Of a DNA stretch of 10,106 bases, positions 299 to 10,056 are shown in pieces. The translations under genes and the position numbers were made by a program. Position 1 is the first letter of the stretch. Each line of letters starts with the position of its first letter. The notes under the pieces are model-generated. The model searched no databases. It was not told where the DNA came from and saw nothing but the letters and a program-made list of their open reading frames with translations. Origin of the DNA: Candidatus Jordarchaeia archaeon (GTDB taxonomy: Archaea; Asgardarchaeota; Jordiarchaeia; Jordiarchaeales; Jordiarchaeaceae); the NCBI GenBank assembly GCA_029856435.1, contig JAHQXB010000141.1:1-10106 (forward strand), written 5' to 3'.

Positions 299-1546
299 TC
301 AGCCCTTCACAACGCCCAGAGGACGCAGACGCGCAACCAGAGAAGCAATACCTGCATCATGCGACGCCTTAGCCACCTCATCAACATTCTTGTAAGCCTC
401 AGGAGCCTCCTCAGCCACAACTTCAATACTCGCAGCCCTAACAAGAATCCCCGCAGACAAAAGCTTACCCTTCACACTCTCACCCCTAAAACTCCTAATC
501 GCCTCATTCCTACTCATCACCCTACCCGCTCCGTGAGCGGTTGATCCGAAGCTGAGTTCCATGGCTTCTTTTCGCCCTCTGAGGATGTAGCTGGCGGTTC
601 CCATTGTTCCGGGTATGATGACTGGTTGTCCTATGTTTTTGTATTTTTGTGGTAGTTCGGGGTGTTCTGGGGGGAATGCGCGTGTGGCGCCTTTTCTGTG
701 TACGTAGACTGTGCTGGTTTCGCCGTTGACTTTGTGTTTTTCGATTTTGGCTATGTTATGTGCTACGTCGTAGATTAGGTGCATTTCAAGGTCTTCTGCC
801 GGTGTTCCGTATACTTTTTGGAAGGATTCCCGTACCCAGTGGGTTATGCTTTGTCTGTTGGCCCAAGCGAAGTTGGCTGCTGCGGCCATGGCTGCTAGGT
901 AGTCTTGGCCTTCGGGGCTTTTTCCGGGTGCTGCTGCTAGTTCTCTGTCTGGTAGTTCGATTCCGTACTTTTTTGTGGCTCTTTCCATTATTCGTAGGTA
1001 GTCGGAGCATACTTGGTGTCCTAGTCCTCTTGAGCCTGTGTGTATCATGACTGTGGCCTGATTCTCTCTTAGTCCGTAGATTTTGGCTGCTTCTTGATCG
1101 AAGATTTTTTCGACGTATTGGATTTCGAGGAAGTGGTTGCCGGCTCCTAGTGTTCCTACCTGTGCGACGCCTCTGTCTTTTGCTTTGGTTGATACTTTTG
1201 TTGGGTCAGCTTCTTTTAGGCTTCCGTTTGCTTCGCAGTATAGGGCGTCTTCTTCCCAGCCGAAACCCTTTTCGATGGACCATTTGACGCCTTCGGCGAG
1301 TATGCTGTCTAATTCTGCCATTGAGAGCTTAATTTTTCTTTTGGAGCCTAAACCGCTGGGAACGTTATCGAATATTTCTTGTGTTAGGACTTTTATTTTT
1401 TCTTCAACGTCTTTTCTTTCTAGGTTGGTTGTGATTATTCTAACACCGCAGTTGATGTCGTATCCTACGCCTCCCGGGCTTAAGACTCCTTCTTCATAAT
1501 CGGTTGCAGCCACTCCGCCTATTGGAAATCCGTAGCCTTGATGTGC
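299..1546 (-). CDS. rtcB: RtcB 3'-phosphate/5'-OH RNA (tRNA-splicing) ligase, exon 2 (415 aa). Predicted gene is join(1577..1792,299..1546); the ORF-track 418-aa ORF starts at an AUG inside the intron
   Basis: All expected RtcB motifs are intact: AHQGYGFPIGG, GGVGYDINCG (Asp/Cys metal ligands), GTLGAGNHFLE, IHTGSRG, DVAHNIAK, HRKGAT, PGTMG, STAHGAGR (guanylylated His motif), EEAPEAYK and the C-terminal LRPLGVVKG. Confidence 0.96.
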   Translation of the reverse strand, partial: AHQGYGFPIGGVAATDYEEGVLSPGGVGYDINCGVRIITTNLERKDVEEKIKVLTQEIFDNVPSGLGSKRKIKLSMAELDSILAEGVKWSIEKGFGWEEDALYCEANGSLKEADPTKVSTKAKDRGVAQVGTLGAGNHFLEIQYVEKIFDQEAAKIYGLRENQATVMIHTGSRGLGHQVCSDYLRIMERATKKYGIELPDRELAAAPGKSPEGQDYLAAMAAAANFAWANRQSITHWVRESFQKVYGTPAEDLEMHLIYDVAHNIAKIEKHKVNGETSTVYVHRKGATRAFPPEHPELPQKYKNIGQPVIIPGTMGTASYILRGRKEAMELSFGSTAHGAGRVMSRNEAIRSFRGESVKGKLLSAGILVRAASIEVVAEEAPEAYKNVDEVAKASHDAGIASLVARLRPLGVVKG

Positions 1547-1576
1547 TTCCCGCATGGGAGGCGATTCTCTTCATGT
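1547..1576 (-). other. 30-nt archaeal BHB-type pre-mRNA intron in rtcB (ACAUGAAGAGAAUCGCCUCCCAUGCGGGAA)
   Basis: Central 4-bp helix CCCG(1582-1579)/CGGG(1552-1549); 3-nt bulges ACA(1578-1576) and AAG(1548-1546); intron helix CAUG(1575-1572)/CAUG(1556-1553); flanking exon-exon helix. Cleavage after the 2nd nt of each bulge removes exactly 30 nt, including the UGA, and restores PD|AH. Confidence 0.9.
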
Positions 1577-1792
1577 GTCGGGCAAGGTTACGGAGAACTT
1601 TTTTATTCCAGGTAGGCTGGTTACGTTTGCCGCTTGGATTAGGGTTTGGTCTTTGTGTATATCTTTCATGAGGTACTCATTTGCGATGATTCTTGCGGGC
1701 ACCCTCATGTAGGGGCGGAAATCTTTGGGTATTTCCCAAATGTTTTTGCTGATTTGTTTGAGAGGTATGTTTTTTGTGCTCAAATTGTTCAC
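1577..1792 (-). CDS. rtcB: RtcB ligase, exon 1 (N-terminal ~69-72 aa). Start is GTG 1792 or, more likely, TTG 1783
   Basis: Translation IWEIPKDFRPYMRVPARIIAN...TLIQAANVTSLPGIKKFSVTLPD resembles the archaeal RtcB N-terminus and ends at the conserved PD. GGAGGTGA at 1796-1789 lies 5 nt upstream of TTG 1783. Confidence 0.92.
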
Positions 1793-1796
1793 CTCC
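1789..1796 (-). promoter_or_regulatory. Shine-Dalgarno site GGAGGTGA for rtcB
   Basis: Full anti-SD complement with 5-nt spacing to an in-frame TTG. Confidence 0.7.
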
Positions 1797-1845
1797 TCTC
1801 TTCATTAAGGGAATGAAGGATAAGTTGCATCGCTTATTACTCTTT

Positions 1846-1853
1846 TTTTATAA
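1846..1853 (-). promoter_or_regulatory. Putative archaeal TATA box (TTATAAAA) for rtcB
   Basis: TATA-like octamer about 50 nt upstream of the SD, implying a start site near 1822. Position and consensus only. Confidence 0.45.
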
Positions 1854-2510
1854 GTTAGTCTACTTAGGGGAAGATTTACGTCACTGTACTTACAATAAGT
1901 TTATGCATCTAATTTTGAATCAACTTATTCTTAAATTTTTTACAATTCTGAGAAAACACTTTTTACTATTTATTATCCTAAATTATGATTGTTTACTATG
2001 ATTTCTTCCCTATGCCACTCCTAAAAAGTTGTTATATTTAAAAGTATCTAGTATGGTGAAGGGGGACCTCGTCTTATGTATGTAGCTTCTCTTCTATGCG
2101 TAATCGTTTGATCCTCTCAAAAAAAGGAGGCTTAACAGGGCTTCCTTCCAAATAAGCCTAAAAAAATGGGGGTAAGACCAGCTAACCCTGCACACATACC
2201 ATGTCAACAAACCACATACTTACGACAAGGTCTCATGGTGAAGTATGAACCAAGTTATTGGAGGCAGTGTTTTGGAGGGTAATCAGAGGGGTTAAAGCAC
2301 AGTTTTGAATTGTTGAGCTAAAATTGTGGGTTGAGTGTTTGCCTCTAGGGGTTTGCCTTTTGTTTAGTTTATAATGAATCTTTTTGGTAGCGAATCGGAT
2401 GCTTGGGTAGTAGAATTTTGCTATTTTTCCAGTTGTCTCGCTAGAGAAACATTGTTGCATGTTTTTATATTTGGTTTTATCGAAAAATTGAAAATGCAGG
2501 TTGGGTATTG

Positions 2511-2522
2511 TATATTTAAAAG
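2511..2522 (+). promoter_or_regulatory. Putative TATA element TATATTTAAAAG upstream of infB
   Basis: AT-rich box about 20-30 nt before the ATG cluster at 2530-2544. Confidence 0.45.
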
Positions 2523-2535
2523 AGGGGATATGAAA

Positions 2536-4320
2536 ATGCCCATGAGACAGCCCATTTGCGTAGTGCTAGGTCATATAGACAGTGGAAAAACCAGCATATT
2601 AGACAAAATTAGAGGAACCGCGGTGCAAAAGAGAGAGGCAAAGGGTATAACGCAGCATATAGGGGCTAGCATGCTTGATACAGAGACCATAAATGCCATT
2701 GGTGGTAAACTTCTTGAGTCTTATAAAGTGAAGTTAACTATACCCGGTATTTTAGTTATCGATACGCCTGGGCATAGTTCGTTTTTTAATCTTAGGAAGC
2801 GTGGTGGTGCAGTTGCAGATTTTGCCATTCTCGTTGTTGATATTTTGAATGGTTTTCAGGCGCAGACCTATGAGTGTGTGGATATTTTGAAGACGCGTAA
2901 AACACCCTTTTTGATTGCTGCTAACAAGGTTGATAGAATTAACGGCTGGTCTCCCTCTGGTTCTCTCTCCATTCTTAAGAGTTTGAGTATCCAACCGGAT
3001 TTTGTGTTGCGTTTTTTGGATGAACGTATATATGAGATTATGGGTGACCTGTCACGTTTGGGTTTTTCGGGAGATCGTTTTGACAGAGTGCGGGACTTTA
3101 CCCGGAATGTTGCTATAATTCCTACAAGTGCTGTGACTGGAGAGGGAATCGCCGAGCTACTGGTTGTATTAGCGGGTTTGGCTCAGCAGTATTTAAGTCA
3201 GCGGTTGCAGTTCAGCGAAGGGGCGGCTAAGGGAGTGGTTTTGGAGGTGAAGGAGGAACCGGGACTTGGCCACACTATAGATGCCATAATTTATGATGGT
3301 GTTTTGCACAAGGATGATTTGATAGTTATAGGTGGACTGGGGAAGGCGATTGATACCCATATTCGTGCTTTGTTGTTGCCTAAGCCTTTAGATGAGATGC
3401 GTGATCCACGTCAGCGTTTTGATAGTGTTGATGAGGTGGTGGCTGCTGCTGGTGTGAAAATTGTTGCGCCGGGTTTGGAGAAAGCTGTTGCGGGTGCTCC
3501 TCTACGCGCTGTGGGAGATTCGTCTCAGCTTGACCAGGTAATAAAAGAGGTCCAAGCTGAGGTGGAATCAGTGCGTATTGAAACTAGTAAGAGTGGGGTG
3601 GTTCTCAAGGCGGATACCTTGGGCAGTCTTGAGGCGTTGATGAGTTATTTTAGTGAGCGGGGGGTTCCGGTGCGTTTGGCGGATGTGGGTGATGTTAGTA
3701 AGAGGGATGTAATTGAGGCTGCGGTGGTTGCTGAGAGGGAGCCATTATATGCTGTGGTTTTAGCGTTTGGTGTGCGTGTTTTACCGGATGCTGAAGAGGA
3801 GGCAGAGATTAATGGTGTTCCGATTTTTCGTAGTGATGTAATTTATGGTTTATTTGATGATTATGATAAGTGGGTTGCTGAAAAGAAGGAGGAGCAGCGG
3901 CGCCAAGCTTTGGCAGGAGTTGTGCGTCCATTTAAGATTAGGATTTTGCCAGGTTATGTTTTTAGAAGGAGCAAGCCTGCAGTTGTGGGAGTGGAAGTTT
4001 TGGCGGGTTCAATGGTTCCTAAGACTAGGCTTGTTAATAAGGACAATCGGCGAGTGGGCGAAATTATGCAAATTCAGGATGAGGGAGAGGTGAGACAGGT
4101 TGCACATAGAGGTTCAAGCGTGGCTATCAGTATTAGGGGACCAACAGTGGGGCGCCAGATTCGCGAAGGGGATATTTTGTACTCAGATATTCCTGAGATT
4201 CAACTAGATAGGCTCTCTCGTGAACTGGGGGAGGAGCTTAGTCCTGATGAACTGGAGGTTTTAAATGAAATAAGGGAGTTCAAAAGCAGGAAACTATTAG
4301 ACCTTCTGGAAGAAAGTTAG
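2536..4320 (+). CDS. infB: Translation initiation factor IF2 / aIF5B (~594 aa; start ATG 2536, alternatives 2530 and 2542)
   Basis: RQPICVVLGHIDSGKT (G1), ITQHIGA (G2), DTPGH (G3), NKVD (G4), SAVTGEG, KADTLGSLEAL and VFRRSKPAVVGVEV. There is no bacterial N-terminal extension. GAGGGG at 2522-2527 precedes ATG 2536. Confidence 0.97.
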   Translation: MPMRQPICVVLGHIDSGKTSILDKIRGTAVQKREAKGITQHIGASMLDTETINAIGGKLLESYKVKLTIPGILVIDTPGHSSFFNLRKRGGAVADFAILVVDILNGFQAQTYECVDILKTRKTPFLIAANKVDRINGWSPSGSLSILKSLSIQPDFVLRFLDERIYEIMGDLSRLGFSGDRFDRVRDFTRNVAIIPTSAVTGEGIAELLVVLAGLAQQYLSQRLQFSEGAAKGVVLEVKEEPGLGHTIDAIIYDGVLHKDDLIVIGGLGKAIDTHIRALLLPKPLDEMRDPRQRFDSVDEVVAAAGVKIVAPGLEKAVAGAPLRAVGDSSQLDQVIKEVQAEVESVRIETSKSGVVLKADTLGSLEALMSYFSERGVPVRLADVGDVSKRDVIEAAVVAEREPLYAVVLAFGVRVLPDAEEEAEINGVPIFRSDVIYGLFDDYDKWVAEKKEEQRRQALAGVVRPFKIRILPGYVFRRSKPAVVGVEVLAGSMVPKTRLVNKDNRRVGEIMQIQDEGEVRQVAHRGSSVAISIRGPTVGRQIREGDILYSDIPEIQLDRLSRELGEELSPDELEVLNEIREFKSRKLLDLLEES

Positions 4321-4401
4321 ATTCAGTTATGAAAAGAAATACGAATAGTTTAAAAGCAGTTATTGATAGTATTTTTTGGTATCTATCGGAGGTTATCACT
4401 C

Positions 4402-4773
4402 ATGCCCGGATTTAAATTGGTGATTTCCGATCCAGAAAAGGGCCGTACGGTACAGGTTGATGTTGATGAAGCAAAGTCTCGTGCCTTGTTAGGGGCTCGT
4501 ATTGGTCAGAAGATTGATGGTGGACCTCTGGGTTTTAGTGGATATGAATTTTTGCTCACCGGTGGAAGCGATAAAGATGGTTTTCCCATGCGAAAAGGGG
4601 TGCATGGTCCGGTGAGAAAAAGGATTCTTATTGGTAGCAAACCAGGATATCATCCGCCCTATAAGGGCCAGCGTAGAATGAAGATGGTTAGAGGGGACAC
4701 GATTTCTGAGGATATAGCCCAGGTAAACTTGAAGATAGTTAAAAGGGGTGCAAAGGAAATCTTTGAAGGGTAA
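4402..4773 (+). CDS. rps6e: 30S ribosomal protein S6e (123 aa)
   Basis: FKLVISDP, TGGSDKDGFPMRKGV, RRMKMVRGDTIS and IAQVNLKIV motifs. GGAGGT at 4388-4393 is 8 nt before ATG 4402. Adjacency to infB is typical of archaea. Confidence 0.96.
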   Translation: MPGFKLVISDPEKGRTVQVDVDEAKSRALLGARIGQKIDGGPLGFSGYEFLLTGGSDKDGFPMRKGVHGPVRKRILIGSKPGYHPPYKGQRRMKMVRGDTISEDIAQVNLKIVKRGAKEIFEG

Positions 4774-4855
4774 GAGGCACCCCAAAGTATAACCTTCAAA
4801 TTGTTGAATTTCTCTTCATAAATTTTTTAGCCTTTAGGGTGGGGAGGAACTCTTA

Positions 4856-5371
4856 ATGAGTGTTTACAAGGAGGGAAGTTATGGTGGGGAAAGAAGATTT
4901 GCTTGTGACGCTATGCTAGGGCGTCTTGCACGTTGGCTTCGTCTTCTTGGATATTATACTTTTTATTCTCCCAAAATTAGGGATGATGAGCTTTTAGAGG
5001 TCTGTATTCGGGAGGATTTGAACCTCCTCACTAGGGATGTGGACTTTTTTAAGCGAGCGACTTCGTGCGGTTTAAAAGTTAAACTCATTCAGAAAAATTC
5101 CTTTGAGGAACAATTTTTCGAAGTTGTGGGTTTTTTTGGTTTAAATTTGAGCATTTCCCCTGAGAACTCCCGCTGCCCAGAATGCAATGGTCTAATTCAG
5201 AGTGTGGATAGAGAGGAGATAAAAAATAAGGTTTCAGCTAATACTTTGGATTCCTATGATGCCTTTTGGATTTGCACAAACTGCGGCCAAGTTTATTGGC
5301 GTGGACGCATGTGGCTGTCAATGACTCGAATTGTTGAAAGAACTAAGGAAAAACTAAAAAGGGGAGTTTGA
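4856..5371 (+). CDS. Mut7-C RNase-domain (PIN-like, DUF82/MJ1477-like family) protein with C-terminal Zn ribbon
   Basis: FACDAMLGRLARWLRLLGY, LLTRD, RCPECNG and FWICTNCGQVYWRG. Confidence 0.88.
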   Translation: MSVYKEGSYGGERRFACDAMLGRLARWLRLLGYYTFYSPKIRDDELLEVCIREDLNLLTRDVDFFKRATSCGLKVKLIQKNSFEEQFFEVVGFFGLNLSISPENSRCPECNGLIQSVDREEIKNKVSANTLDSYDAFWICTNCGQVYWRGRMWLSMTRIVERTKEKLKRGV

Positions 5372-5861
5372 TGTTCCAAGCCTTTTAATATCTCAACATT
5401 GCGAAATGTGCTTATTTTCTATCTCCTATGCTATAAAAAAGTAGTAAGAAACAATTCCAAATAAAAAGAAGAGAAGGGGAGGAAGCGAAAAGTACTAGAG
5501 CAAAACTAAACAGTGCAGGAAAGTGACCTTCAATTTCCAGTAGCGCCACCGCTTTATTTGTGGAGAATTATTGTTTCGAAGCTATCTTTGTTCTATAGCG
5601 TGTCTATAATGGAAGCGTAAACTTGGCATTCTTCTATCCCGATTCATGATTTGAGAAACTAAATAAGGAAAAAACGGTTAATTGAACACTAAAAAGGGAG
5701 GAAGTAGTGAAGGTAATCAGTTTTAAAAAGTTTATTTTTATCATTTTTCAAGGTTGGCTGTTTAAGTATTAAGGAAAAACTTTTCTATCTGTTTTACCAA
5801 TGAAACTTAAGTAAATTGCTTATGTAGTTTTTGGTTTTCTGTTTTAAGAGGACTGGTAGGA

Positions 5862-6476
5862 ATGACTCTTGAAGAAGGACAATTCTTGGTTAAACTGGCA
5901 CGTAGAGCCTTCGAAACTTACGTCAAAGAAAATGTAAAGATTGAGGTTCCTAAAGACACCCCAGCAAAGCTGCTTGAAAAGAGTGGTGTTTTTGTAACTC
6001 TCAGCACGGTTACCCCAACAGGAGAAAAACGTCTACGGGGATGTATAGGCTTTCCCCTGCCACACTTCCCTTTAGCCCAAGCAACCATCGAGGCGGCTAT
6101 TAGTTCTGCAACCATGGATCCCAGGTTTCCTCCTGTCACGGAAAGTGAGATAGATAATATAGTAGTTGAGGTCACCGTTTTGACGCCGCCAAACCTAATA
6201 GAAGTGGAGGATCCAAAGGAGTATCCTTCCAAGATTAAGGTGGGAAAACACGGTTTAATCATAGAAAGGGGACCCTACAAAGGTTTGCTCCTGCCCCAAG
6301 TTCCTGTAGACTGGAATTGGGACGAAGAAGAATTTCTTTGTGAATGCTGCATTAAGGCGGGTCTCTCGCCAGATGCGTGGTGTGACAAAAAAACAAAAGT
6401 CTACTGTTTTGAGGGAATCATCTATGAAGAAGAGAGCCCCCGTGGCAAGATAGTAGAGCGCCCTCTGATAAAATAG
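5862..6476 (+). CDS. AMMECR1-domain protein (TIGR00296-like)
   Basis: GVFVTL, LRGCIG, AISSATMDPRFPPV, VEVTVLTPP, GLLLPQV and CIKAGL motifs. Confidence 0.94.
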   Translation: MTLEEGQFLVKLARRAFETYVKENVKIEVPKDTPAKLLEKSGVFVTLSTVTPTGEKRLRGCIGFPLPHFPLAQATIEAAISSATMDPRFPPVTESEIDNIVVEVTVLTPPNLIEVEDPKEYPSKIKVGKHGLIIERGPYKGLLLPQVPVDWNWDEEEFLCECCIKAGLSPDAWCDKKTKVYCFEGIIYEEESPRGKIVERPLIK

Positions 6477-6498
6477 GGCATTTACTGGGGTTCTTAAA

Positions 6499-7686
6499 AT
6501 GAAAGTGTACTTTTCACCCAACGGTATGGCTCTTGGACATGCGGGTCGTTGTGTTCCTATTGCTAAGAAACTCGTAAACGATGGTGATGAGGTTCTCTTC
6601 TCGACTTACGGTGACGCGGTAAATTTTGTTAAGGCGGCAGGTATACCTGTAACCCGAGTGCCCAAGATGGGATTAGTTGAAAGTCTTGATGGAACTATTG
6701 AAATGCTTAGAACAAGCATTCGGTGGCCCAAATATGTTTGGATTTTTTTGAAACAGTACATATCTGAAATCAAGCTTTTAAGACGTTTCAAGCCAGATGT
6801 GGCTGTTTCTGATTCGCGTTTATCCACGGTCTTGGCTTGTTGGCTTCTGGGAATACCTTGCATTTTGTTGCTGCATCAAATTAAGTTGCTGGTACCCCAT
6901 AAGAAGCGCCTCAGCAAATTTAAGGAGAAACTAAAGCATTTTGCGGAATGGGTTATTCTTTATGTTACTCACCTGCTTTGGAATAGAAGTACTTCAATTC
7001 TTGTTCCAGACTTTCCACCTCCCTACACAATATTCAAATCTAGTCTTGAAGTTCCAGAGAAGCTTATGAGTAAGGTGAAATTTATTGGTCAAGTGATTGA
7101 AAGACCGCCACACCAGTTACCTAGTGAGAAAGAGTTGAAGAGCAAATTAGGGTTCGATAGTCGACCACTCATCTATGTTGGGATTTCAGGGACAAAGAAG
7201 GAGAGGGAGCTTCTGGCAATTAAGCTTGAAGAAATTTTCAGCCAGTTTCCTGCCAAGTATAATATTGTGATGACCCTGGGAAAACCAGATAAACCAGACA
7301 CCTTTATAGAAAAAAATAATCTGCGTATCTATAATTGGGTCACAGACAGATACTCTTTGATTAAGGCCTGCGACCTTTTGGTATCTAGGTCAGGGCATAA
7401 CACCTTAGCAGAGTCCATGTATTATGGCAAGCCATCAATTCTTATTCCAACACCTGCCCACACAGAGCATCAGGAAAATTCAAAGTCTGCGGAACGCATG
7501 GGCATCGCAAAAGTTATTCAACAAAACGAGTTATCAAAAGGTAAAATGTTAGATTGTGTGGAGGAGGTGCTGAATCATTCAAGGTATAGGAATCGTATAA
7601 AGCAGGTTCAGAAAAAAATTTCCAACTTGGACGCCGTACAAACCGTTATTGACCTAATACATCAATTAGGAAATAGAGAAAAATAA
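6499..7686 (+). CDS. GT-B fold glycosyltransferase, family 28 / MJ1255-like
   Basis: N-terminal G(MA)LGHAGR motif, PDVAVSD, and C-terminal SRSGHNTLAESMYYGKPSILIP..EHQENS sugar-nucleotide-binding segment. Substrate unknown. Confidence 0.85.
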   Translation: MKVYFSPNGMALGHAGRCVPIAKKLVNDGDEVLFSTYGDAVNFVKAAGIPVTRVPKMGLVESLDGTIEMLRTSIRWPKYVWIFLKQYISEIKLLRRFKPDVAVSDSRLSTVLACWLLGIPCILLLHQIKLLVPHKKRLSKFKEKLKHFAEWVILYVTHLLWNRSTSILVPDFPPPYTIFKSSLEVPEKLMSKVKFIGQVIERPPHQLPSEKELKSKLGFDSRPLIYVGISGTKKERELLAIKLEEIFSQFPAKYNIVMTLGKPDKPDTFIEKNNLRIYNWVTDRYSLIKACDLLVSRSGHNTLAESMYYGKPSILIPTPAHTEHQENSKSAERMGIAKVIQQNELSKGKMLDCVEEVLNHSRYRNRIKQVQKKISNLDAVQTVIDLIHQLGNREK

Positions 7687-7700
7687 ATTTTCGGGAGGTT

Positions 7701-8579
7701 ATGTCTCTGGTTATTGATAAATTGCTGGAGAGAAAAATGTTAGAGTTTCTGGAAGAAGACTTGGGAGGGGGGGACATTACTACAAATGCGCTCATTCCTG
7801 AAGAAATCATAGCTGAGGCGAGAATAATTTCCAAAAGAGAAGGCATAATTGCTGGTGTAGAGGAGGCAGGTATAATTTACAAACTTTTAAATGTGGATTT
7901 TAAACCTCTGGTTAAAGATGGGGAGAGAGTAGCTAAAGGTCAAACTGTGGCGGAGTTAAAAGGCTCTGCTAAATCTATTCTTCTTGGGGAGCGCACTGCT
8001 CTAAATATTATGATGCGTATGAGCGGCATTGCTACTGAAACCTCTAAAATTGTGGATCTGGCAAAAACAATTAACCCAAAACTCAGAATAGCCTGTACCC
8101 GCAAGACTACACCTGGATTCAGATATTTTGAGAAAAAGGCTGTGGCTCTGGGCGGAGGTGACACTCATCGTTTCCGTCTTGACGATATGGTTCTAATTAA
8201 AGATAACCATTTATATATAATAGGTGATGTTAGAAGGGCGGTATCTCAAGCCCGGTTAAGGAGTAGTTTCACCAAAAAAATAGAGGTGGAAGTTGTGGAC
8301 GCCGACCAAGCCTTTGAAGCAGCCGATGCCGGCGCAGATATAATAATGTTTGATAACATGTCCCCAGAGGAGATAAAAAAAGCACTGGAAATATTAGAGA
8401 AGAGGGGATTAAGAGAAAAGGTTCTAATTGAATTGTCTGGGGGAATCACTCCAGAAAATGTTGAAAAGTACATGGCTCTGGACGTGGACATTATATCTAT
8501 GGGCTATATAATTCACTCCATAAGAGCCCTAGATTTAAGCTTGGACTTAATTAGCACTAAATCCACTCCTGAAGCTTAG
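7701..8579 (+). CDS. nadC: Quinolinate phosphoribosyltransferase (nicotinate-nucleotide pyrophosphorylase, carboxylating)
   Basis: EDLGGGDITT, GERTALN, TRKTTPG, HRFRLDDMVLIKDNH, IEVEV, DIIMFDN, SGGIT and ISMG. Exact start uncertain: GGAGGT abuts ATG 7701, and ATG 7737 is an alternative. Confidence 0.96.
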   Translation: MSLVIDKLLERKMLEFLEEDLGGGDITTNALIPEEIIAEARIISKREGIIAGVEEAGIIYKLLNVDFKPLVKDGERVAKGQTVAELKGSAKSILLGERTALNIMMRMSGIATETSKIVDLAKTINPKLRIACTRKTTPGFRYFEKKAVALGGGDTHRFRLDDMVLIKDNHLYIIGDVRRAVSQARLRSSFTKKIEVEVVDADQAFEAADAGADIIMFDNMSPEEIKKALEILEKRGLREKVLIELSGGITPENVEKYMALDVDIISMGYIIHSIRALDLSLDLISTKSTPEA

Positions 8580-8593
8580 TTTTTCCATTTTTT
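8580..8593 (+). terminator. Putative oligo-U terminator after nadC
   Basis: TTTTTCCATTTTTT immediately follows the stop codon. Confidence 0.45.
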
Positions 8594-8844
8594 GAAAAGT
8601 CTGTCGTTGAGAAGAAGCCAACCTCAGATAAGTTTTCAGAATATGAGATTCAGGTAAATGAAATAATCAGTAATTGGGAAAAGCTACAAGAGGTGTTTAC
8701 GAATTTGCCGAAAGCGGAATAATTTTCCAGCCCTCTTTTACCCTTTTTTTCCACATATTTTAAAGCAATTAATGGTTTCTCTTTATACGGGTTGTTTTCT
8801 TCAAGCGTATATTCTCCAAAAATTGTATGTTGGGTGGCTGAAGA

Positions 8845-10056
8845 ATGCTTCAGAATAAGTTGGTTGAGTCTCCTGTTGAAATTCTTAATGAGTGGAAAAA
8901 GGCGGTGCTTGTGCGTTACGGGGAACTGTCACTTAAAAGTGAGCCTACCAGAAGTTTTATGGAAAACATTTTGATTAGAAACATAAAGTGGACACTTAAC
9001 AGGAAAAAAGTACCTTACGATAGTATCTCTCGGGAGAGAGGTAGAATCTTTTTGAGTAGCAATTCTCCCAGAATGGTGGGGCAAGCGCTCTCTAGTGTTT
9101 TTGGCGTTGTTTCTACAAGTCCTGTTCTGGTTACGTCCTCAGAAATGGATGAGATAATACGTCTCTCTGAAAGGGTAGCTGATGTTCTAATCAAACCCAA
9201 TGACAGCTTTGCAATACGTGCTAGGAGAGTGGGGACTCACAGCTTCACTTCCATTGATGTTGAGAAAAAGGTTGGAGAAGTAATTCTTGCTAGAACTAGG
9301 AATCTAAATACTAAGGTAAATCTGACCCAACCAGACAAATGCATCTTTATAGAGGTTAGAGAAAAAAAGACTTACATTTACCACGAAATCTTTCCAGGAC
9401 CAGGCGGCTTACCTTATAACAGTGAGGGGAAGATGGTTGCTCTCTTCTCGGGGGGCATAGACAGCCCAGTCGCAATGTGGTTGATGATGAAACGTGGATG
9501 TAAAGTAGTTCCTATATATTTTGACAACGCGCCATACACGGATGAATCTAACTATAACCGAGCAATGAGTGTAATCAAAATTCTAAGAGAATATGCTACT
9601 CAAGACGAATTCTATATTTATGTGGTTCCTCATGGTAAAACTCTCGAAAAGGCCATCACTCAGGCGCCTCGTAGGCTGACTTGCCTCCTCTGCAAAAGAG
9701 CCTTTTACCGGGTGGCTACTATTATAGCTGAAAAGGAGAACGCGAAAGGCATCGTCACGGGAGAGAGCTTGGGACAAGTAGCTAGCCAAACATTAGATAA
9801 CCTAATGGTTCTGAATGAAGCTACACATCTACCTGTATTCCGCCCCTTAATAGGTTTAGACAAATTAGAAATAGAGGGCATCGCCAAAAAAATCGGAACA
9901 TACGAAGCTTCCTGCATTAAAACTGCAAGCTGTTCAGCGGCACCAGATAAACCAAGAACAAAAGCAAAACTGGAAGAGGTAAAAAAGACAGAAGAAGAAC
10001 TCATGAACCTCATACAAGAAGAGAGTAATTTAGCCAAACGCATTTACATTGAATAG
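8845..10056 (+). CDS. thiI: tRNA 4-thiouridine(8) synthase ThiI, archaeal CXXC type without rhodanese domain
   Basis: VRYGELSLKS, THUMP domain (SFAIRARR...VNLTQPD), PP-loop SGGIDS, CLLC, TGESLGQVASQT and a downstream Cys in ASCSAAP. This matches the CXXC+C arrangement of Fe-S-dependent archaeal ThiI. Start could be later (GTG 8905). Confidence 0.95.
   Translation: MLQNKLVESPVEILNEWKKAVLVRYGELSLKSEPTRSFMENILIRNIKWTLNRKKVPYDSISRERGRIFLSSNSPRMVGQALSSVFGVVSTSPVLVTSSEMDEIIRLSERVADVLIKPNDSFAIRARRVGTHSFTSIDVEKKVGEVILARTRNLNTKVNLTQPDKCIFIEVREKKTYIYHEIFPGPGGLPYNSEGKMVALFSGGIDSPVAMWLMMKRGCKVVPIYFDNAPYTDESNYNRAMSVIKILREYATQDEFYIYVVPHGKTLEKAITQAPRRLTCLLCKRAFYRVATIIAEKENAKGIVTGESLGQVASQTLDNLMVLNEATHLPVFRPLIGLDKLEIEGIAKKIGTYEASCIKTASCSAAPDKPRTKAKLEEVKKTEEELMNLIQEESNLAKRIYIE

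Follow-up and report, generated by a model that had tools for sequence, protein, structure and literature searches.

The rtcB gene of a Candidatus Jordarchaeia archaeon (GenBank assembly GCA_029856435.1, contig JAHQXB010000141.1) lies on the minus strand of the 10,106-nucleotide (nt) stretch of DNA analyzed here, referred to below as the window, and its reading frame is interrupted by a 30-nt insert. The source is a 3.54-Mb metagenome-assembled genome that is 98% complete. Read directly, the minus strand runs ...UUG CCC GAC | ACAUGAAGAGAAUCGCCUCCCAUGCGGGAA | GCA CAU CAA GGC UAC..., and the position (1576..1547), length, sequence and in-frame UGA given for the insert in a preliminary description of this DNA were exact. 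In the unspliced reading, the UGA is reached two codons into the insert and the product is ∼70 amino acids (aa) long. With the insert taken as a predicted intron of the bulge–helix–bulge (BHB) type, the parts of the gene are as follows.

1841..1854, minus strand: A/T-rich TATA-like box cttataaaaaaaga, a possible promoter ∼60 nt upstream of the start, by sequence reading only
1796-1789, minus strand: Shine-Dalgarno sequence GGAGGTGA, 5 nt 5′ of the TTG start
1577..1783, minus strand: rtcB exon 1, 69 codons from TTG at 1783-1781, or 72 if the start is GTG at 1792; the translation ends ...FSVTLPD
1547..1576, minus strand: predicted BHB-type intron ACAUGAAGAGAAUCGCCUCCCAUGCGGGAA, 30 nt, found at the same site in 15 variants
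1571..1573, minus strand: in-frame UGA, the second codon of the intron
302..1546, minus strand: rtcB exon 2, 415 codons, beginning AHQGYGFPIGG; the stop codon is at 301-299

Exon 2 matches the Pfam RtcB profile over positions 21-426 (E = 7.8e-171), and residue 2 of this exon is aligned to His67 in the RtcB of Pyrococcus horikoshii, which places the break between Asp65 and residue 66. The motif at the break, LPD|AHQGYGFPIGG, is invariant, corresponds to Asp65-His67 of the P. horikoshii protein and is split between Asp and Ala. A literature search on Asp65 and His67 of RtcB found nothing, and the label “active-site motif” that had been attached to this site could not be confirmed. The TTG at 1783 appears to be a more likely start than the GTG at 1792, because a Shine-Dalgarno sequence, GGAGGUGA, ends 5 nt ahead of it; the same start residue is used in the gene models of relatives. 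Joined from this TTG, the exons encode a 484-aa RtcB that aligns without a gap to 25 uninterrupted Asgard orthologues, which agrees with the full-length spliced product proposed earlier. The tryptic peptide predicted to span the junction begins FSVTLPDAHQGYGFPIGG. Scans of the window with Rfam and for tRNAs gave no match, and no second copy of the intron sequence was found in the genome, indicating that it is not a repeat.

Archaeal tRNA-splicing endonuclease (EndA) cuts RNA after the second nucleotide of each bulge of a BHB structure. The 66 nt from 1594 to 1529 have a minimum-energy fold of −23.0 kcal/mol (z = −3.25), and only one of 200 shuffled sequences was as stable. The elements of the predicted fold are listed below, and all are on the minus strand.

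1583..1594: exon–exon helix, 5′ strand UCCGUA-A-CCUUG, pairing with 1540-1529
1579..1582: central 4-base-pair (bp) helix, 5′ strand CCCG, the last exon 1 bases before the bulge, pairing with 1552-1549
1576..1578: 5′ bulge ACA, with EndA predicted to cut AC^A at the 1577/1576 bond; the bulge bases stay unpaired in the minimum-energy fold
1553..1575: intron hairpin, CAUG (1575-1572) with CAUG (1556-1553) and GAG (1569-1567) with CUC (1560-1558)
1549..1552: central 4-bp helix, 3′ strand CGGG, the 3′ end of the intron, pairing with 1582..1579
1546..1548: 3′ bulge AAG, with EndA predicted to cut AA^G at the 1547/1546 bond
1529..1540: exon–exon helix, 3′ strand CAAGG-C-UACGGA, the partner of 1594..1583

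The features that define a BHB are present. Two 3-nt bulges, ACA and AAG, lie on opposite strands with the 4-bp CCCG/CGGG helix between them, flanked on the intron side by the hairpin (h′, CAUG/CAUG and GAG/CUC) and on the exon side by a helix (h) that is either 2 bp of UG/CA or the 11-bp exon–exon helix. BHB introns of pre-tRNAs and of cbf5 are cut between the second and third bulge residues (PMC2738675). Applied here, the same cuts yield a joint that is identical to the motif of the sister family. The predicted fold has the topology known from pre-tRNA, in which the end of the exon is paired with the 3′ end of the intron. A loose version of the BHB shape occurs in this genome at a frequency of ∼1.2e-4 per position and length (76,704 matches over 2 × 3.54 Mb × 93 lengths). 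At this frequency, a BHB in the register that restores the frame should be rare for a random 30-nt insert.

The structure drawn in the preliminary description was correct in its CCCG/CGGG helix, ACA bulge and CAUG/CAUG and GAG/CUC pairs, but its 3′ side differs from the minimum-energy fold. In that fold, CCUUG/CAAGG and UCCGUA/UACGGA are paired (11 bp), leaving an 8-nt 3′ bulge, AAGCACAU. The strict BHB form, whose 3′ bulge is the 3 nt AAG and whose outer helix has 2 bp (UG/CA), has an energy of −18.6 kcal/mol, ∼4.4 kcal/mol above the minimum. The 3′ bulge of this RNA is probably relaxed.

Among the genomes examined, the insert is confined to one genus. Close relatives of the source genome are deposited as Candidatus Jordarchaeia, Jordarchaeaceae or Freyarchaeota, among them the closed genome CP147778.1. 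Each of the five further genomes of the genus has an insert at this codon, which is 30 nt long with TGA or TAA except in the closed genome (29 nt). Outside the genus, a stop inside rtcB was found in none of the 34 Asgard genomes with a match, the motif [LM]PD.H.GYG was uninterrupted in 25 of 25 loci inspected, and no genome examined contained the insert. The sister family carries the motif as LPDAHQGYGFPIGG, the same sequence that is predicted for the joint. This clade-limited presence, together with the uninterrupted gene of the sister family, indicates that the insert is fixed in one clade and was gained after the split from the sister family.

Searching genomes, scanning metagenomes with a pattern and looking up orphan N-terminal open reading frames (ORFs) of 70-76 aa produced 15 distinct DNA variants of the insert, 13 of 30 nt and two of 29 nt. 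The second intron codon is UGA or UAA in 14 of the 15 (UAA in four). The relatives alignment that had been proposed as a check has come out in favor of the prediction, with covariation that is modest. A second check, that the insert should be present in DNA, also held: contigs from the source run and independent hot-spring assemblies (∼93% identical) carry it. A joint that skips 1547-1576 was found in none of the contigs of four runs; two of these runs are labeled metatranscriptomic but are probably DNA, and the result says nothing about expression. One 215-nt contig of ∼88% identity has a joint from 1482 to 1571, which is off the intron borders, and probably comes from a diverged relative.

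Public annotation of rtcB in this clade appears to be systematically wrong. The deposited models are 418- to 419-aa “RtcB family proteins” that start inside the intron (window 299-1555), and the N-terminal piece of 70-76 aa is a separate, unnamed ORF. Such orphan ORFs form 11 clusters that end ...TLPD[ST] followed by a stop, with a frameshift in one case. Every protein cluster at least 83% identical to exon 2 (23/23) consists of truncated models, of 340-441 aa and mostly 418-419 aa. Fragmentation of this kind by automated annotation had been foreseen in the preliminary description. The full-length RtcB entries of the protein collection are all at most 69% identical to exon 2, and none reaches 83%; within the collection there is therefore neither an assembled cDNA of the spliced form nor a close relative that lacks the intron.

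Variation among the 15 sequences follows the proposed fold. In their alignment, 89.4% of the helix cells are in standard pairs, compared with 39%–46% after a shift of the 3′ partners by 1-3 columns. Both sides have changed in three pairs, and the covariation score was reached by one of 500 shuffles, which ignore relatedness, making this score supportive only. The clearest covariation is in the exon helix, where U-A, C-G and U-G pairs are exchanged through synonymous codons for Leu (UUG/CUG) and Gln (CAA/CAG). An independent RNAalifold prediction contains the exon helix as well as the three central C-G pairs, which are invariant in all 15 variants. At the fourth central pair, the first base of the CGGG strand is C in nine variants and A in six, giving G-C or G·A. 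The 5′ bulge is A-[C/U]-[A/C/U] throughout, and the 3′ bulge is AAG in 13 variants and AUG in two. The intron hairpin is paired in 81.5% of its cells, and its equivalent reaches 9-10 bp in other variants.

The preliminary description held that protein homology predicts the same junction independently of the structure. The BHB cuts do restore the conserved motif, but homology alone leaves four possible cut registers here (yielding PDAH or PDTH), as bases resembling CACAU are repeated at the two borders. Under the BHB cuts, all 15 variants have Ala as residue 66, with a codon that varies only among synonyms (GCA, GCG, GCU), and the first intron codon varies nonsynonymously (ACA, UCA, CCA). None of the intronless relatives has Thr at the residue 66 position. 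It is this comparison across variants that singles out the predicted BHB register and settles the choice.

The gene is maintained by selection, and the machinery that would process its transcript is encoded in the same genome. Pairwise ratios of nonsynonymous to synonymous substitution (dN/dS) over both exons are 0.04–0.065, at dS values of 1 to >2 that are saturated between deeper pairs, and the insert is the single interruption in every one of the 15 variants. The genome has one copy of rtcB, an intact archease gene and two uninterrupted EndA paralogues. The first paralogue is closest to the catalytic subunits of crenarchaeal (αβ)2 endonucleases (3P1Z_B, 3e-45), and the second to the M. jannaschii and M. 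kandleri enzymes. Asgard EndA has been described as an (αβ)2 enzyme with a loop that is linked to broad substrate specificity (PMC5829648); broad specificity is adopted here from that work. In complete genomes of Freyarchaeia and Atabeyarchaeia, 92%–95% of tRNA genes have introns, often at noncanonical positions (PMC11291895). A search for another ligase able to join 3′-phosphate and 5′-OH ends found no clear one: PF09414 gave only weak matches, in ORFs of ∼590-600 aa, and PF09511 gave none, but it also gave none in the control genomes, and an alternative ligase is neither shown nor excluded by these searches.

We consider it highly likely that, in this Asgard archaeon of the Jordarchaeia/Freyarchaeia group, the rtcB pre-mRNA carries an EndA-type (BHB) intron, namely the 30 nt at 1576..1547. 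This reading is supported because the same site and geometry recur in 15 variants and are absent from sister lineages, the exons are under purifying selection, rtcB is the sole copy, the enzymes are present, and the predicted joint equals the sister motif. For the rtcB message, this would most likely mean that the tRNA-splicing endonuclease must cut it and that RtcB itself must reseal it. From the anatomy, the conservation, the selection on the exons and the enzyme inventory that we observe, we infer cleavage, ligation and any regulatory role along the following lines. The CCCG of exon 1 would pair with the intron CGGG in the transcript, leaving a 3-nt bulge on each strand in a fold held by the hairpin and the exon–exon helix. 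An EndA of heterotetramer type, built from the two paralogues, would cut AC^A and AA^G after the second bulge nucleotide. RtcB, probably helped by archease, would seal the 2′,3′-cyclic phosphate and 5′-OH ends, and would probably also circularize the excised 30-mer. The spliced message, ...CCC GAC|GCA CAU..., would encode the 484-aa RtcB with an intact LPDAHQGYGFPIGG motif. The conserved early stop could act as a safeguard against an RtcB with ten extra residues in its invariant motif.

Since the genome has a sole rtcB, new ligase would be made only if ligase is already present. This self-dependence may be put to regulatory use, or may be merely tolerated in a cell that needs RtcB anyway. A much broader proposal is that the rtcB intron is one piece of a wholesale spread of EndA-spliced mini-introns into Asgard coding genes. 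It would include a self-referential ligase loop, a harmless unspliced message, RtcB output tied to splicing capacity (positive feedback or licensing) and protein expression that depends broadly on splicing. We regard this scenario as speculative and rather unlikely as a whole.

Several observations weigh against an EndA-spliced intron. As noted above, the minimum-energy fold is not the one with the strict 3-nt 3′ bulge. In the six of 15 variants with a G·A fourth pair, the 5′ bulge of the minimum-energy fold is displaced by one base. If the enzyme followed this fold, the cut would be frame-breaking, and a 4-bp spacing would have to be enforced on these RNAs by the enzyme. Covariation is modest in that most pairs never vary. 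Finally, the complementarity of the exon helix derives partly from the coding sequence, as intronless relatives have a mean of 7.9 of 12 positions and the sister family 10 of 12. Part of the exon helix is older than the intron, and may have favored gain at this site.

The only rival explanation with some support, which is weak, is a split gene, in which a protein of ∼70 aa ending PD[T/S] and another of ∼418 aa that restarts inside the insert would assemble, the insert serving as a stop–restart spacer. Gene callers do model rtcB as two pieces. Codon −3 relative to exon 2 is AUG, GUG or UUG in nine of 15 variants, and purine-rich GAGAGG/AGGAGG sequences lie ∼10 nt upstream of it. In the other six variants, however, this codon is CUG (4), ACG (1) or CCG (1), and no start is conserved. 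Its sequence is accounted for by its place in the intron hairpin, where it supplies the closing pairs. A split would break up the invariant PD.H motif, with extra residues left on either side of the break, and it leaves the exact BHB geometry and the synonymous covariation of the exon helix without a reason. We judge a split gene to be improbable.

Translational recoding fits the data less well, and appears very improbable. The ribosome might hop over the 30 nt in the manner of T4 gene 60, or might read through the stop, for example with UGA as selenocysteine. A stop directly after the take-off region followed by a stable hairpin would suit such a mechanism, and relatives of the lineage are reported to have selenocysteine machinery (PMC11291895). 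Bypassing is contradicted by the codons involved: GAC or GAU before the insert matches the last codon, GAA or GAU, in only 0-2 of the 15 variants, and inconsistently. Read-through conflicts with the UAA stop of four variants and with the frameshift caused by the 29-nt form in two, and would place ten additional residues inside the invariant motif.

A decaying pseudogene or an assembly artefact, to which the in-frame stop and the truncated public gene models might point, is the least probable reading of all, given the low dN/dS over saturated synonymous divergence, the lack of any other lesion in the 15 variants, the lack of a second rtcB in a genome that is 98% complete and belongs to a group in which nearly all tRNA genes need splicing, and the presence of the insert in a closed genome and many independent assemblies. 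Relaxed selection, further lesions and a functional paralogue, the signs expected of a pseudogene, were each looked for and not found.

An intein reading was rejected, since 30 nt with stop codons cannot encode an intein. As a separate observation, the rtcB genes of two relatives (G013, C38:129362-132214; G034, C1:1558351-1561179) are each one open frame of ∼1000 aa, in which the matches to Pfam RtcB positions 1-50 and 44/49-426 are ∼1.5 kb apart. Judged by this arrangement, these genes look like they contain an intein at a site other than that of the mini-intron.

Inserts of the same kind were found in other genes of the source genome. The cbf5 gene (contig C73:22783-22813, minus strand) has a 31-nt BHB-type insert with an in-frame TGA. 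It presents a CACU/AGUG helix with bulges AGA and AAA, and the same cut rule joins CUA G|AU CCC to give GTL-D-PKV, with the joint falling after the Asp codon's first letter and ahead of its second. We take this Asp to be the catalytic one. The crenarchaeal cbf5 intron has been reported at this same position (PMC2738675). In tyrS (contig C81, ∼49760-50701, plus strand), a 30-nt insert with three stops lies in EPSG|..|HLG, where HLG belongs to the HIGH motif. Here a CUGG/CCAG helix has bulges AUA and AAU, and the same cut rule restores the frame. In many other Asgard genomes, matches to TruB_N break at approximately profile position 11-17 or contain stops; these genomes include all members of the genus and the sister family, plus G021, G028, G031, G033 and G038. 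Judging from sequence, the cbf5 intron may be widespread in Asgard archaea.

A scan for BHB shapes recovered rtcB, cbf5 and a further 28-nt candidate insert between two long coding frames (contig C24:15011-15038, minus strand), with an ACGG/CCGU helix, two AAA bulges and a 6-bp intron stem. For a genome-wide count, three versions of the BHB shape were combined with frame restoration, and cut sites shifted by 1-2 nt served as the control. The real sites numbered 1070 (962-1014 when shifted), 177 (171-192) and, after a codon-usage filter, 43 (35-51), with no separation from the controls. Because the signal is drowned by gene junctions and by frames that are open by chance, we claim no genome-wide number of introns.

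The remainder of the window (2374-10056, plus strand) encodes aIF5B, ribosomal protein S6e, a Mut7-C RNase-domain protein, AMMECR1, a glycosyltransferase, quinolinate phosphoribosyltransferase and ThiI. Each has its Pfam match over a single uninterrupted ORF, and no other split gene is evident in the window. Base composition in this region is uneven. A strong strand asymmetry extends across the divergent rtcB and aIF5B genes (500-4500), with GC skew up to +0.43 at 3000-4000 and AT skew down to −0.46 at 500-1500. No flip of the skew is seen here. In aIF5B, T or G predominates at the third position of codons (skew 0.3–0.8), and in rtcB this position appears to be mostly A or C in the gene's own sense, as judged by eye over the first ∼46 exon 2 codons rather than counted. 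The plus strand thus appears to be G+T-rich in both genes.

In the papers searched, only two archaeal mRNA substrates of EndA are named, cbf5 in its coding sequence and HVO_1309 in its 5′ untranslated region (UTR) (PMC7714728, 2020; PMC10485636, 2023 review). Full-text literature searches turned up no description of an rtcB intron, in agreement with the preliminary description, and none of mRNA introns in Asgard archaea. If the rtcB intron is genuine, EndA-mediated mRNA splicing would reach the Asgard archaea, the closest prokaryotic relatives of eukaryotes. An intron would also reside in the very gene that encodes the enzyme for the last step of splicing, making the ligase dependent on itself, which is testable. 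The public rtcB models of the clade would be wrong, being 418-aa proteins that are missing residues 1-69 and half of an invariant motif. Taken with the cbf5 and tyrS inserts of this genome, the rtcB insert suggests that genes in these lineages should be called with an intron-aware step. These genes could provide a natural system for examining how tRNA-type introns colonize coding sequences.

Of the known systems with which the rtcB intron can be compared, HAC1/XBP1 splicing is similar in that a protein endonuclease cuts an mRNA at stem–loops, an RtcB-type ligase can seal the ends, and the encoded protein is changed. Tanaka, Meineke and Shuman reportedly described RtcB as the ligase in 2011. 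The differences are that the HAC1/XBP1 endonuclease is Ire1 and not EndA/TSEN, that the process is regulated by stress, and that its target is a transcription factor and not the ligase. The HVO_1309 intron of Haloferax volcanii resembles the rtcB intron as an mRNA substrate of EndA with BHB sites (Schwarz 2020, PMC7714728; PMC10485636). Unlike the rtcB intron, it resides in a 5′ UTR, is processed by an α2-type enzyme and interrupts no reading frame.

Noncanonical tRNA introns of Freyarchaeia and Atabeyarchaeia (PMC11291895) come from the same lineage, have the same predicted enzymes and are similarly small. In contrast, the rtcB intron has an mRNA as its substrate, with an exon helix that is built of codons and is thus constrained by the protein.

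The rtcB intron also resembles the cbf5 intron of Crenarchaeota (Watanabe 2002; Yoshinari 2006; Yokobori 2009, PMC2738675). Both are short introns in coding sequence, often with a relaxed BHB whose cuts, predicted in rtcB, fall between the second and third bulge residues. Both occur in hosts with a hetero-oligomeric EndA, sit at a catalytic or invariant motif, and have a clade-limited distribution that points to gain. Splicing of cbf5 was demonstrated with cDNA and by cleavage in vitro, whereas that of rtcB is predicted only. The rtcB intron further differs in its fixed length of 29-30 nt, its near-invariant stop at intron codon 2, its host gene, which encodes the pathway's own ligase, and its occurrence in Asgard archaea and not in Crenarchaeota. 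Sequence and predicted structure support placing the rtcB intron in the cbf5-type class of archaeal pre-mRNA introns, within which it would be notable for its host gene and its lineage.

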